From assembly GCF_965641715.1 (NCBI RefSeq), contig NZ_OZ282453.1: a DNA stretch of 64,000 nt; one strand, 5' to 3'. Made by a program: the position numbers. Shown piece by piece: positions 9,001 to 15,000 of this stretch (position 1 is the stretch's first letter; the number at the start of each line of letters is the position of its first letter). The stretch comes from Escherichia coli. GTDB taxonomy: Bacteria; Pseudomonadota; Gammaproteobacteria; Enterobacterales; Enterobacteriaceae.

Positions 9001-12000
9001 TAACCAGCAGAATGCCTGGGTTCTAATTATTTCTAAAGATTTTTAATGAATGCTTATTGTCTGATACACAAGAAATAACACTCTTTTTATCGTTAAAAAA
9101 TGATATTTCACTTTGCCCACACCGTTAAAGTCACTGATAATGCGTCCGTTCGTAAATTCAAAATGGCGTAATCTAATATATGCTAAATTTATTTGTTGGC
9201 CTTGATATATACACAGGGCTTTTGTTATTACTTGCTCTGGCATTTGTGTTGTTCTACGAAGCAATCAATGGTTTTCATGACACGGCGAATGCGGTGGCAA
9301 CCGTTATTTATACTCGTGCCATGCAGCCACAACTTGCTGTGGTGATGGCGGCATTTTTTAACTTTTTTGGCGTGTTATTGGGCGGACTTAGCGTTGCCTA
9401 TGCCATTGTCCATATGTTGCCAACCGATTTGTTGCTGAATATGGGGTCAACCCACGGACTGGCGATGGTCTTTTCCATGCTGCTGGCGGCGATTATCTGG
9501 AACCTGGGAACGTGGTTCTTCGGTTTACCGGCCTCCAGTTCGCACACCTTGATTGGTGCGATTATCGGCATCGGTTTAACCAACGCGCTGTTAACCGGCT
9601 CATCGGTGATGGATGCGTTAAACCTGCGTGAAGTGACCAAAATTTTCTCCTCGCTGATTGTTTCCCCTATCGTCGGCCTGGTCATTGCGGGAGGCCTGAT
9701 ATTCCTGCTGCGACGCTACTGGAGCGGAACGAAAAAGCGTGACCGTATTCACCGCATTCCGGAAGATCGCAAAAAGAAAAAAGGCAAACGTAAGCCGCCA
9801 TTCTGGACGCGTATTGCGCTGATTGTTTCCGCTGCGGGCGTGGCGTTTTCGCACGGCGCTAACGACGGGCAGAAAGGGATCGGCCTGGTGATGCTGGTAC
9901 TGGTGGGGATTGCCCCTGCTGGCTTCGTCGTCAATATGAACGCGTCCGGCTATGAAATTACCCGTACCCGCGATGCCGTCACCAACTTCGAACACTACCT
10001 GCAACAGCATCCTGAACTGCCGCAGAAGTTGATTACGATGGAACCTCCATTGCCTGCGGCATCTACTGATGGCGCGCAAGTGACGGAGTTTCACTGTCAT
10101 CCGGCAAATACCTTTGATGCGATTGCGCGCGTTAAAACGATGCTGCCAGGCAATATGGAAAGTTACGAGCCGTTAAGCGTGAGTCAGCGCAGCCAGCTGC
10201 GCCGCATTATGCTGTGCATCTCTGATACCTCCGCGAAGCTGGCGAAACTGCCAGGCGTCAGTAAAGAAGACCAGAACCTGCTGAAAAAACTTCGCAGCGA
10301 TATGTTAAGCACCATTGAGTACGCTCCGGTGTGGATCATCATGGCGGTAGCACTGGCGCTCGGCATTGGCACCATGATTGGCTGGCGTCGTGTAGCGATG
10401 ACCATCGGTGAGAAGATTGGTAAGCGCGGCATGACGTATGCGCAAGGCATGGCGGCACAAATGACGGCGGCAGTGTCTATCGGTCTTGCCAGTTATATTG
10501 GGATGCCCGTCTCTACAACACACGTACTCTCATCTGCAGTTGCAGGGACGATGGTGGTGGACGGCGGTGGGTTACAGCGTAAAACGGTAACCAGCATCCT
10601 GATGGCGTGGGTATTTACTTTACCGGCGGCGATTTTTCTTTCTGGTGGGCTGTACTGGATAGCATTGCAGTTGATTTAACCTTCCTGAAAATGCCCGGTC
10701 CTGGCGATCGGGCATTTCCATTTTTGGCTAGTGATAACCACGCGCGGTCATAAAATCCGTAATCGCTTTTTCTGCATCAACCAGCACCTGTTCCAATGGC
10801 TGATTGGCATCGATATCAACCAGTTGTGCACCACCAAAGGTTAACTGTGGCGTTATGGCAATCTTCCTCGCCAGCGATTCCCGTTTATGGTCGGGTTTAC
10901 GCATGCAGGCAACTTCAAGGTCAACATTGAGTTTGATGACCAGATCAGGCTTATGGCTCGCCATCCAGTGAAACGCTTTACGTTCCTGGCTTGCCAGCCA
11001 TGAGACAAAACGACCACCTTCAACGTTAGGTGGGAACACCGTACCATCGTAAGCGCCAGGAATTTGGTCCTGAGGATAACGGTCGGTTAGAACAATTAAC
11101 CCGCGACGACGACAGGCAAGCATATGACGAAAGCGCAGTAAGCGACGGGCGACAAACGCTGTAATTACCAGCGCCGGAACTGGTCCTGGCAATTTTTTTG
11201 CTGTTTTCACCTGATTTCGTTCAATTGTTTTATGTAAGGATTTTCCCATCAACGGTAATTTTGTCACTGCACGACCGACATTTCCGGCCTGTTTTCCTAA
11301 ATGAACTCTTTCGGCAGCACCATATTTTTCGACAACGGTAATGAGATGTTCGCACACCGTTGACTTGCCTGAACCATCGCTACCAATAACGGCAATTAAT
11401 GGAGGTGTTATTGACTGCATGAATATATCCTTAAATTTAAATATCCATCCAAAATATTTATTTGGTTAATATGTTTTTATGAAAGCGTAATTCAGGTCAA
11501 TGTCACAATTAACCATTGTCACAATAAGGTTGAACGGATATTCTGAGCACGGACCACGTAATATTCAATACATTATTTACTGCCGGGTTTTTCGTGAATC
11601 AACGTAATATGTCAATAATTAATTCCACGCCAGTGCGTGTTATTGCCATTGTAGGATGTGATGGTTCAGGTAAATCGACCCTCACGGCAAGCCTGGTAAA
11701 TGAACTGGCAGCAAGAATGCCAACAGAACGCATTTATCTCGGGCAATCGTCCGGGCGAATTGGCGAATGGATTTCACAGCTCCCTGTTATTGGCGCACCT
11801 TTTGGGCGTTATCTGCGAAGTAAAGCGGCACATGTGCACGAAAAGCCCTCAACACCGCCTGGCAATATTACTGCGCTGGTTATCTATCTGCTTTCCTGCT
11901 GGCGGGCGTACAAGTTTCGCAAAATGTTGTGTAGAAGCCAGCAAGGCTATCTGCTCATCACCGACCGCTACCCGCAGGTTGAAGTGCCGGGTTTTCGCTT

Positions 12001-15000
12001 TGATGGCCCGCAATTGGCAAAAACCACGGGCGGTAACGGTTGGATAAAAATGTTAAGGCAGCGCGAGTTGAAGCTGTACCAATGGATGGCGTCTTATTTA
12101 CCCGTATTGTTGATTCGTCTTGGCATTGATGAACAAACCGCGTTTGCGCGTAAACCTGACCACCAACTGGCAGCGTTACAGGAAAAAATCGCCGTTACGC
12201 CGCAATTGACATTCAATGGCGCAAAGATCCTTGAACTGGATGGTCGGCAACCAGCCGATGAAATTCTGCAAGCGTCACTACGCGCAATTCACGCCGCGCT
12301 TTCCTGATCACCAAAATGGATAGGGGATGATTTAACGAATGGATGCACTACAAACACAAACTGTTATTAGTACAACCGCGCCGCAGCCCAACTACATACC
12401 GGGGCTGATTGCGGTGGTCGGGTGTGATGGCACCGGTAAATCCACACTGACCACCGACCTGGTGAAATCGCTGCAACAACACTGGCAAACCGAGCGCCGC
12501 TATTTGGGGCTGCTCTCGGGCGAAGACGGCGACAAAATAAAACGATTGCCGTTGGTTGGCGTCTGGCTGGAACGGCGACTGGCGGCCAAATCCTCGAAAA
12601 CCCAAAGCATGAAAACCAAATCTCCAGCGCTATGGGCGGCGGTGATTATGTACTGCTTCTCGCTGCGAAGAATGGCGAATCTGCGCAAGGTTCAGCGACT
12701 GGCGCAAAGTGGCGTTCTGGTGGTCAGCGATCGCTTCCCGCAGGCTGAAATTTCGGGCTTTTATTATGACGGACCGGGGATCGGCGTCGAACGTGCGACC
12801 GGGAAAATAAGCATGTTTCTGGCGCAGCGCGAACGGCGTTTATACCAACAAATGGCGCAATATCGCCCGGAATTAATTATTCGCCTGGGCATTGATATTG
12901 AGACTGCCATCTCCCGCAAGCCTGACCATGACTATGCCGAGCTGCAGGACAAAATCAGTGTTATGTCGACGATTGGCTATAACGGCACAAAAATTCTTGA
13001 GATTGATTCCAGAGCGCCCTACAGCGAAGTGCTGGAACAGGCACAGAAGGCGGTTTCTCTGGTTGCCATCGTTTCTGACCGCCGAAGTTTAACTTAAGGC
13101 TGGCGGGATACTTTTTACTATCAACGATAAGGTCAGGCTGAATTGGCGGGTTTTAACATCAAACATTGGTTTGCAGATGGCGCGTTTCGCACCATTATTC
13201 GCAATAGCGCCTGGTTAGGCTCCAGTAATGTCGTGAGCGCCTTGCTGGGTCTGTTGGCGCTCTCGTGTGCCGGTAAAGGGATGACGCCCGCCATGTTTGG
13301 CGTACTGGTGATTGTGCAATCGTACGCCAAGTCGATCAGCGATTTTATTAAGTTTCAGACATGGCAGCTGGTGGTTCAGTACGGAACACCAGCATTAACC
13401 AACAATAATCCGCAGCAATTTCGCAATGTCGTCTCATTTTCCTTCTCGCTGGATATCGTCAGCGGCGCGGTGGCGATTGTCGGCGGCATTGCCTTACTGC
13501 CATTCCTTTCCCATTCATTAGGTCTGGATGACCAAAGCTTTTGGCTGGCGGCGCTGTATTGCACGCTCATTCCTTCAATGGCTTCCTCCACGCCGACCGG
13601 CATTCTGCGTGCGGTAGATCGCTTTGATTTGATTGCTGTACAGCAGGCGACGAAACCTTTTCTGCGCGCAGCGGGGAGCGTCGCAGCCTGGTATTTTGAC
13701 TTTGGTTTTGCGGGTTTTGTTATTGCCTGGTACGTGTCGAATCTGGTTGGCGGCACCATGTACTGGTGGTTTGCCGCGCGCGAATTACGCCGCAGAAATA
13801 TCCATAACGCCTTCAAATTGAATCTGTTTGAGTCTGCCCGACACATTAAAGGCGCGTGGAGTTTTGTCTGGTCAACCAACATTGCCCACTCCATCTGGTC
13901 GGCGCGTAACTCGTGCAGCACAGTGTTGGTGGGGATCGTGTTAGGACCCGCTGCCGCCGGGTTATTTAAAATCGCCATGACATTCTTCGACGCCGCCGGA
14001 ACGCCAGCGGGTTTGCTGGGTAAAAGTTTTTACCCAGAGGTGATGCGTTTAGATCCGCGCACCACCAGACCGTGGTTGTTAGGTGTGAAGTCCGGTTTAC
14101 TGGCGGGCGGAATCGGTATTCTGGTGGCGCTCGCGGTGTTGATCGTCGGCAAGCCGCTCATTTCGCTGGTGTTTGGCGTTAAGTATCTCGAAGCGTATGA
14201 CCTGATTCAGGTGATGCTGGGCGCAATTGTGATTTCGATGCTGGGTTTCCCGCAGGAGTCATTGCTATTGATGGCGGGAAAACAGCGCGCTTTTCTCGTG
14301 GCGCAAACCATCGCCTCAATCGGCTACATCGTATTGCTGTTCATGTTCTGTCATCTGTTTGGCGTGCTGGGAGCAGCGTTTGCTTACTTCGGTGGGCAAT
14401 GTCTGGATGTGGTGCTTTCGCTAATTCCGACCTTAAAGGCATTTTTTCAGCGCCATTCCTTGCTTTATAACGCAGCCGGAGAGAAATCCTGATGATGAGA
14501 AAATATTTCCCGCTTGAGGCGAGCGAGCATCTATTTGTTGCGATTGAGGAAGATGATGTTGTTGATGCCCAGGTCAGTTTGCCGCCGACTATCGCACTAA
14601 GTTGTACCACCGAAATCATCCATGATAATTACGCGTTATGCCTGCAATTCTGGCTCAATGGCGTTGATCGTCAGGAATTACTTCGTTTAATTCGCAAACA
14701 AGCCAAAGGCGATGAGCTGACGACAGACGAGCGTAAACAGTTTAAATACATGCGAGCGCGCTACAAGCATCTACGTTTTGCACAACGGCTGTATTTAAAA
14801 AAGCATCAGGCCAGATTTTTATTCGGCAAAACGACCGTTTTTCTGGGACGTTTTCAGGACGGATTTCGTAACGGTAAGAAAAATATTGTGTCGTATTACG
14901 GCAACCTGTTACGAATTTATTTAAGCTCTCCGGTCTGGTCGTTGGTGAACTATTCATTACGCCATAGCCAGTTAGAAAGCGTAAGCGGTTTTATTGCCTA

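Follow-up and report, generated by a model that had tools for sequence, protein, structure and literature searches.

Why should a locus for ceramide synthesis carry three different copies of a kinase-like protein, and what might these proteins phosphorylate? The question is posed by a stretch of 64,000 nucleotides of an Escherichia coli genome (contig NZ_OZ282453.1 of assembly GCF_965641715.1; hereafter the window), in which the genes yghT, yghS and yghR, together referred to as the trio, stand beside genes for dihydroceramide synthesis, a flippase and a pair of LptF/G-like permeases. An earlier interpretation made without database searches, the sequence-only reading, had taken the three products for P-loop proteins resembling thymidylate/deoxynucleoside kinases and had offered small-molecule or lipid-headgroup kinases as a speculation. 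From the analysis described here it is probable that the trio belongs, in functional terms, to a sphingolipid/flippase module. The answer that is preferred, by analogy with other systems and at somewhat less than an even chance, is that YghT, YghS and YghR are cooperating ATP-dependent phosphotransferases which, together with a CHAD-like protein and the flippase YghQ, would constitute the head-group module of the sphingolipid locus. Such an answer gives a concrete hypothesis as to which complex sphingolipid E. coli and many proteobacteria make, and also as to how that sphingolipid is readied for flipping and Lpt-type export.

Sequence and fold of the three proteins

The three open reading frames (ORFs; Table 1) lie between positions 10728 and 13097 and encode proteins of 230-252 amino acids (aa), as had been claimed, and the same genes are called by RefSeq in the 99%-identical chromosome of E. 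coli strain TUM13936, which was compared over 14 kb around the trio. By BLASTP the proteins share 34-45% identity, with 37% between YghT and YghS (E 4e-54), 34% between YghT and YghR (2e-47) and 45% between YghS, the nearest paralogue of YghR, and YghR itself (5e-64). Their paralogy is far above chance, and the aligned sequences hold 57 invariant columns. Regular-expression searches recover the motifs attributed to all three: the N-terminal Walker A motif G[SC]DG[ST]GKST starts at residue 13 of YghT, 21 of YghS (GCDGSGKST) and 28 of YghR (GCDGTGKST), and the DR[YF]PQ motif occurs as DRYPQ at residue 113 of YghT and 124 of YghS and as DRFPQ at residue 131 of YghR. To these can be added an invariant RKPDH lid motif, found at residues 174, 186 and 193 of YghT, YghS and YghR, respectively. 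The signature of the ATP-binding cassette (ABC) ATPases is lacking, as had also been said, with zero matches to [LFY]SGG[QE] in any of the three proteins. All are strongly basic, with a predicted isoelectric point (pI) of 9.6-9.9, which fits an anionic acceptor.

What kind of P-loop protein are these? A Pfam search with YghT returns P-loop noise only (Thymidylate_kin at an i-Evalue of 0.43), and a profile built from the three sequences gives a marginal thymidylate-kinase match against the PDB. As single-sequence searches were uninformative, relatives were gathered by an exhaustive profile search, which collected 2159 proteins at E<=1e-3, of which 56 were aligned into a family profile. This profile matches the deoxythymidine monophosphate (dTMP) kinases at 1.7e-11, and matches the structure 2plr at 1.2e-5 over the P-loop region only. 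A structure model was made for YghS (predicted local distance difference test score, pLDDT, 91; predicted template-modelling score, pTM, 0.87), for which 2plr/5h70 is the third-best structural match and in which about 70 residues, chiefly in the stretch from the P-loop helix to the DR strand, find no superposition on thymidylate kinases. The trio thus displays a thymidylate-kinase fold with a P-loop, a DR(Y/H/F) motif and a lid, in keeping with the thymidylate/deoxynucleoside-kinase-like fold originally suggested, and has neither the LSGGQ signature nor the fold of an ABC transporter ATPase.

The resemblance to canonical enzymes is incomplete. Scores against the dTMP-kinase equivalog TIGR00041 are 24.4 (YghT), 22.3 (YghS) and 32.4 (YghR) bits, below the cut-off of 83.25, profile alignments to the nucleotide-binding segment of dTMP kinases are only partial, and the motif that follows DRx is PQ...(F/Y)DG in the trio versus S..AYQ in canonical Tmk. 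RefSeq (PGAP) names both YghT and YghS 'dTMP kinase' and YghR 'nucleoside/nucleotide kinase family protein'. Judged from sequence, the former name appears to be an over-annotation, and one that is spreading across thousands of genomes; YghRST look instead to form a separate branch of the thymidylate-kinase superfamily, one whose catalytic motifs are intact.

Orthologue groups and fusions

Is the trio the outcome of a recent triplication? With one genome taken per species, 78 loci were sampled by choosing the nearest YghS relatives with one peptide pattern. They come from Enterobacterales, Xanthomonadales, Halomonadaceae, many Betaproteobacteria, Sphingomonadales, Acetobacter, metagenome-assembled genomes (MAGs) of Myxococcales/delta-proteobacteria and one Planctomycetota MAG. 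Searched by tblastn with the proteins of the window, 54 of the 78 loci hold three kinase paralogues and 3 hold four; counted by type, T, S and R are all present in 56/78 loci and in 22 of 44 distant loci. A neighbour-joining tree of the 199 kinase ORFs in these loci resolves three near-pure clades (T 61/62, S 63/70, R 64/67), and the triplication is therefore older than the spread of the module, every copy having been retained. On the evidence of the tree the trio is an ancient set of three separate orthologue groups and not a recent triplication. Within each clade the Walker A and DR motifs and the RKPDH lid show conservation of >=90%, and none of YghT, YghS and YghR looks like a dead regulatory subunit.

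Natural fusions provide further information on how the paralogues are used. One protein (P0121), seen on 5 contigs and in an spt-containing locus, joins S and R in a single chain, while another (P0122) consists of a T-type domain followed by an R/S-type domain. The two constitute Rosetta-stone evidence for the paralogues working as a complex, in which a YghS-YghR heterodimer is probable, YghT being either associated with it or acting in sequence.

Linkage to the flippase and ceramide genes

In the window the genes run in the order hyb - yghU - gss - pitB - yghT - yghS - yghR - yghQ - ... - spt - acpR - epimerase - acyl-AMP ligase - yghO - glcC, with yghT divergent from yghS-yghR. The sequence-only reading had the three genes flanking the lipid locus, which is inaccurate since the trio is grouped at one end of that locus, with pitB on one side and yghQ on the other; the other part of that interpretation, a linkage to genes of the serine palmitoyltransferase-like (SPT-like) type across genomes, has stood. 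Neighbours were counted by tblastn and by clustering all ORFs of the 78 loci against one another. As many of the contigs are short, the resulting numbers, such as 44-45 loci for spt, 43 for cerR and 38-39 for aasR, are minimum values. The most constant neighbour is the yghQ flippase gene, and YghQ and the CHAD-like protein are the tightest partners of the trio, ahead of Spt. Gene order is rearranged between genera, in that the aasR-cerR-acpR-spt block lies directly beside yghT in Serratia and at the far end, on the opposite strand, in E. coli and Erwinia, and despite this the trio module keeps its linkage to the spt genes. A one-block layout is seen in Sphingopyxis (S-R-T-YghQ-274aa) and in Acetobacter (S-R-T-YghQ), both of which belong to sphingolipid-producing groups.

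The 274-aa neighbour, annotated as a hypothetical protein, required separate attention. The E. coli sequence has no match to Pfam PF05235 (CHAD), among 30 orthologues one matches at 2.6e-5 and two at 0.1 or better, NCBIfam gives no match, and a PDB sequence search is empty even at E 10. Its alignment contains invariant RxxxKHLRxA, GxxQD, FHxxRK and NGxMGxxHD motifs that are reminiscent of CHAD domains, and UniRef names two orthologues 'CHAD domain-containing protein'. With sequence searches nearly blank, the assignment is settled only by fold comparison, where the protein is shown to be CHAD-like, having a helical bundle with conserved His, Arg and Lys motifs, that is, the conserved-histidine alpha-helical fold of the polyphosphate-binding type. 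CHAD domains are known as polyphosphate-binding modules (10.1101/567040). The top 120 relatives of the CHAD-like protein include no fusion of CHAD to a kinase, and literature searches returned no paper connecting sphingolipids and CHAD domains.

Lipid-phosphate enzymes and the wider kinase family

If the trio acts on a lipid-bound phosphate, what other enzymes of that kind are found nearby? At least one is present in 37/73 loci, and the families listed here recur in the more distant ones. A small secreted PAP2 phosphatase with a signal peptide occurs in 15 loci (top NCBIfam match LpxE, the lipid A 1-phosphatase; Pfam PAP2 4e-14), and in 8 of these its gene has the orientation of yghT and follows it within 135 bp (e.g. 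L043 7562-8125, L051, L055-L059, L064), so that the two genes apparently share one operon in 8 distant loci. A membrane PAP2 protein, undecaprenyl-diphosphatase-like, is encoded in 8 loci, and an acyl 2-hydroxylase of the OlsC/LpxO type in 16. Fourteen loci hold a DgkA-family kinase gene, which in 13 of the 14 stands beside yghO on the same strand (examples are L015 2194-3906, L029 11517-13092, L033, L035, L036, L067 and L072). Its product is a candidate bacterial ceramide kinase, of a family different from that of Caulobacter CpgB, a ceramide kinase with the diacylglycerol (DAG)-kinase fold. The DgkA-like gene never substitutes for T, S or R, which suggests that the trio does not carry out the first phosphorylation of a hydroxyl. 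Finally, a protein like LmtA, the lipid A 1-phosphate O-methyltransferase (2.2e-34, with similarity to Leptospira LmtA), is encoded in 7 loci, Sphingomonadales among them, by a gene that adjoins those of the kinases and in many cases separates yghT from yghS (L048 8849-9592, L062 7067-7807, L063 8491-9261, L074, L078, L081); this neighbour hints at a methylated lipid phosphate.

More distant relatives of the kinases include many proteins of about 500 aa, in which an N-terminal domain precedes a C-terminal YghRST-type domain (P0162, P0168, P0171, P0177, P0220). The N-terminal domain is weakly similar to the NTP_transf_5 nucleotidyltransferases (2/4 members at E<=0.001, best 3.6e-5). BLASTP finds no similarity between it and the 274-aa CHAD-like protein, and the possibility that the two are the same domain was ruled out. 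The gene for one 500-aa relative immediately follows that for a Polysacc_synt flippase (L083 5721-9482); the exopolysaccharide cluster to which both belong also encodes glycosyltransferases, Wzy, ATP sulfurylase and a sulfotransferase. P0220 comprises flippase, N-terminal domain and kinase domain in a single chain. The coupling of the kinase domain to a MOP flippase is thus a family-wide trait.

The locus in E. coli

Table 1. Genes and intergenic features of the yghTSR region, in window coordinates; numbers of loci are out of 78 and are lower bounds.
Feature	Position	Strand	Length	Description and basis	Loci
pitB	9180-10679			phosphate transporter; convergent with yghT	
pitB/yghT hairpin	10689-10717			between the convergent genes; 12-bp stem, T-rich on both sides	
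yghT	10728-11420	-	230 aa	thymidylate-kinase-fold P-loop protein with lid; ORF call, RefSeq yghT, motif regular expression, own T clade	
yghT/yghS divergent spacer	11421-11593		173 bp	AT-rich; presumed control region	
yghS	11594-12307	+	237 aa	GTG start; thymidylate-kinase-fold P-loop protein; chosen for modelling	
yghR	12339-13097	+	252 aa	thymidylate-kinase-fold P-loop protein, DRFPQ variant; ORF, RefSeq, motif regular expression	
yghQ	13143-14492	+	449 aa	MOP/Wzx-type flippase; NCBIfam MOP flippase 2.7e-8; Pfam Polysacc_synt in orthologues	50-53
CHAD-like gene	14492-15316	+	274 aa	'hypothetical protein'	49
YtfJ-family gene	15325-15888	+	187 aa	NCBIfam TIGR01626 1.8e-63, above cut-off	30-32
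LptF-like (15919-16989) and LptG-like (16986-18065) genes	15919-18065	+		permease paralogues; NCBIfam above cut-off	28-29
spt (18100-19272), acpR (19272-19520), cerR (19552-20466), aasR (20463-22151)	18100-22151	-		dihydroceramide synthesis; cerR, epimerase-like reductase; aasR, acyl-ACP (acyl carrier protein) synthetase; RefSeq	
yghO	22548-23690	+		N-acyltransferase of the bacterial ceramide synthase type; fifth dihydroceramide gene	25

How widely is this arrangement found within the species? Of 5426 complete E. coli genomes, 4604 (~85%) carry the yghTSR segment with >=80% of its length covered and 4086 carry the segment from the CHAD-like gene to spt, leaving about 500 in which yghTSR occurs but the middle of the locus does not. 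K-12 is a case in point. Strain MG1655 (L087, record 3129043-3132408, equivalent to ~13143-23690 of the window) carries an IS5 element flanked by yghO and a shortened yghQ, which encodes 355 aa versus 449 aa, and is without the CHAD-like, ytfJ-like, lptF/G-like, spt, acpR, cerR and aasR genes. Through this IS5-associated deletion the trio is an orphan remnant in K-12. Knockouts of yghQ, yghR, yghS and yghT in K-12 have been used in a silkworm screen (PMC9278758); the pathway being already broken in that strain, these knockouts were made in a broken background, and the deletion explains why K-12 is uninformative on the function of the trio.

The BL21 orthologues of the spt-acpR-cerR-aasR genes, ECD_02851-02854, have been characterised in work of the Geiger laboratory on the biochemistry of the five ceramide genes of E. 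coli B (PMC9386255), a study in which a kinase is not mentioned and YghRST are not treated. Literature searches found no functional study of yghR, yghS or yghT and, beyond that paper, none connecting yghO or ceramide to these genes.

As to expression, a scan for promoters and terminators around the genes gave no excess over shuffled sequence except for the pitB/yghT hairpin, which from its sequence is probably a bidirectional terminator. The yghT/yghS spacer holds one weak sigma-70-like match (+ strand, 11516-11544). A FlhDC peak between yghS and yghT has been reported from systematic evolution of ligands by exponential enrichment (SELEX; PMC9962212), and yghS is up 3.1-fold on SlyA overexpression (PMC5797941). 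In the aasR-yghO spacer (window 22001-23000) the G+C content falls to 0.405, versus 0.50-0.55 around it. The AT-rich aasR-yghO and yghT/yghS spacers look like silenced control regions of the H-NS/SlyA type.

Proposed function and its alternatives

What would the module make? Thymidylate-kinase-type enzymes move the gamma-phosphate of ATP onto a phosphate and not onto a hydroxyl. This chemistry, taken with the CHAD partner and the precedent of PPK3, the polyphosphate kinase of Sulfolobus, points to a pyro- or oligophosphate and not to simple ceramide-1-phosphate. The strength of the proposal differs between its parts: a lipid head group is put forward tentatively as the acceptor, with the balance slightly against it, while a pyro- or oligophosphate product is doubtful. 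We infer a kinase activity, a lipid acceptor, an oligophosphate product and an order of steps in which Spt, AcpR, AasR, CerR and YghO would synthesize ceramide on the cytoplasmic side of the inner membrane and either a DgkA-type kinase, where there is one, or a member of the trio would then phosphorylate it; E. coli's own DgkA accepts ceramide. A YghS-YghR(-YghT) complex would next extend the ceramide phosphate from ATP to a pyro- or oligophosphate head group, which the basic CHAD-like protein may bind or measure. YghQ could then flip the lipid as MOP flippases, which characteristically carry pyrophosphate-linked lipids, do with other such substrates, and the LptF/G paralogues, working with the housekeeping LptB, would extract it in the direction of the outer membrane. 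Trimming or capping of the phosphate, by PAP2 phosphatases or the LmtA-like methyltransferase, might follow in other taxa. In its fullest form the proposal would amount to a new class of membrane lipid, a ceramide with a pyro-, oligo- or polyphosphate head group, built stepwise from ATP by a three-kinase hetero-oligomer, held or measured by the CHAD-like protein, flipped by a Wzx-type protein and exported by LptF/G; taken as a whole, this is unlikely.

Several observations weigh against such a reading. An invariant Asp, in the DG that follows DRxPQ, occupies the position of the base-binding Gln of thymidylate kinases, and a pocket that binds only polyanions would not be expected to have an Asp there. 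Nor is polyphosphate the only polyanion that a CHAD-type fold could bind. Only 13/44 distant loci have spt <=10 kb away, and the sample of loci, having been picked via one peptide pattern, is biased to the YghS subfamily. The DgkA, PAP2 and LmtA-like genes are seen in other taxa only and not in the E. coli locus, and literature searches found no structure for an E. coli sphingolipid.

The same material can be arranged in other ways. A heteromeric kinase after the fashion of PPK3 would make or use free polyphosphate (ATP + polyP(n) <-> ADP + polyP(n+1)), with the CHAD-like protein sitting on the polymer, as in the Sulfolobus operon, and only an indirect link to the lipid genes, polyphosphate serving for instance as a phosphate donor or regulator. 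E. coli already has PPK1, which tells against this, as does the nature of the constant partners of the trio, a lipid flippase and lipid enzymes, among which ppx, sixA and pst do not figure. The idea gains from the basic pI of the kinases, from the CHAD-like fold of the 274-aa neighbour and from the phosphate transporter gene pitB, which adjoins in 10/78 loci; that adjacency is confined to Enterobacteriaceae-type loci and so is probably incidental, not functional. It gains also from PPK3 itself, where two thymidylate-kinase-like paralogues are encoded beside a CHAD gene (PMC12995831). The DRx arginine lost from the regulatory PPK3 subunit is, however, kept by all three E. coli proteins, and the family profile favours ordinary dTMP kinases over 2plr; free polyphosphate is held to be an improbable product. 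Alternatively, the three could be soluble small-molecule or nucleotide kinases that make an activated head-group precursor for ceramide or for a polysaccharide unit, with 'dTMP kinase' as the extreme form. Here the thymidylate-kinase/dNK (deoxynucleoside kinase) fold and the RefSeq product names are in favour, and so is the fusion of distant relatives to an NTP_transf_5-type domain within exopolysaccharide clusters, a kinase plus a nucleotidyltransferase being the classic two-step activation. Neither a nucleotidyltransferase nor a head-group transferase is found among the conserved neighbours of the E. coli-type locus, though, and the keeping and fusion of three paralogues, as well as the CHAD partner, would be left unexplained; soluble kinases of this sort are also unlikely. 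TIGR00041 scores of 22-32 bits versus 83 and an insignificant Pfam Thymidylate_kin match also stand in the way, and dTMP kinase function itself is very unlikely. In E. coli tmk is a separate, essential gene. Knockouts of the trio in K-12, by contrast, are viable (strains in PMC9278758).

Could the trio instead power transport? Three P-loop proteins adjoin transporters in a locus that has permeases yet, by RefSeq annotation, no ABC ATPase gene, and in P0220 one chain unites the kinase domain with a flippase, from which non-canonical ATPase subunits driving the LptF/G-like permeases or the YghQ flippase might be imagined, albeit as by far the least probable of these explanations. MOP flippases are not known to be driven by ATP, and LptF/G-like genes accompany the trio in only 28-29/78 loci. 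In Caulobacter the LptF2G2 pair of the sphingolipid locus uses the housekeeping LptB (bioRxiv 10.64898/2026.04.12.717747), which means that LptF/G paralogues need no ATPase of their own. On this result, on a fold of the thymidylate-kinase and not the ABC type, and on the missing signature motif, the transport ATPase was rejected.

Comparison with known systems

How, then, does the trio relate to enzymes that are already understood? Unlike canonical Tmk (TIGR00041/PF02223) it is very basic, non-essential and present as three paralogues within a lipid locus. The known P-loop lipid kinase with which it can be compared is LpxK, the lipid A 4'-kinase, which phosphorylates its membrane-lipid substrate on the cytoplasmic side, ahead of flipping and Lpt-dependent export.

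In Caulobacter, which produces anionic sphingolipids, the head-group genes are surrounded by genes for ceramide synthesis, a putative flippase and LptF/G paralogues (PMC11324152). The enzymes concerned (the ceramide kinase CpgB/CC_1160, CpgA, CpgC and CC_1152/1153/1158) share with the trio the same locus logic and belong to unrelated protein families. The product there is ceramide phosphoglycerate, and neither CHAD nor thymidylate-kinase-like proteins are described for that locus.

By analogy, the closest known way of working for YghRST appears to be that of PPK3, in which two 'thymidylate kinase' paralogues of Sulfolobus (Saci_2019/Saci_2020) form a heterotetrameric polyphosphate kinase, from an operon that also encodes ppx, sixA and a CHAD protein (PMC12995831, published in 2026; E. 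coli YghRST are not mentioned). The E. coli module is alike in having several thymidylate-kinase-fold paralogues encoded with a CHAD protein, and 2plr/5h70 is the solved homologue of the PPK3 catalytic subunit. It differs in having three subunits and not two, with the DRx arginine kept in all of them (>=90% per clade), in being without ppx, sixA and pst among the recurrent neighbour families, in showing no special sequence affinity to 2plr (1.2e-5 versus 1.7e-11 for ordinary dTMP kinases), and in a context of flippase and ceramide synthesis, not of phosphate storage. Given these differences in subunits, neighbours, sequence and context, YghRST are not filed as members of PPK3. Were the phosphate-on-phosphate chemistry to prove true, PPK3-type enzymology would extend from archaeal energy storage to bacterial envelope lipids, and were the oligophosphate-ceramide also true, it would represent the lipid-anchored equivalent of polyphosphate synthesis and, within bacteria, a relative of the principle seen in archaeal PPK3.

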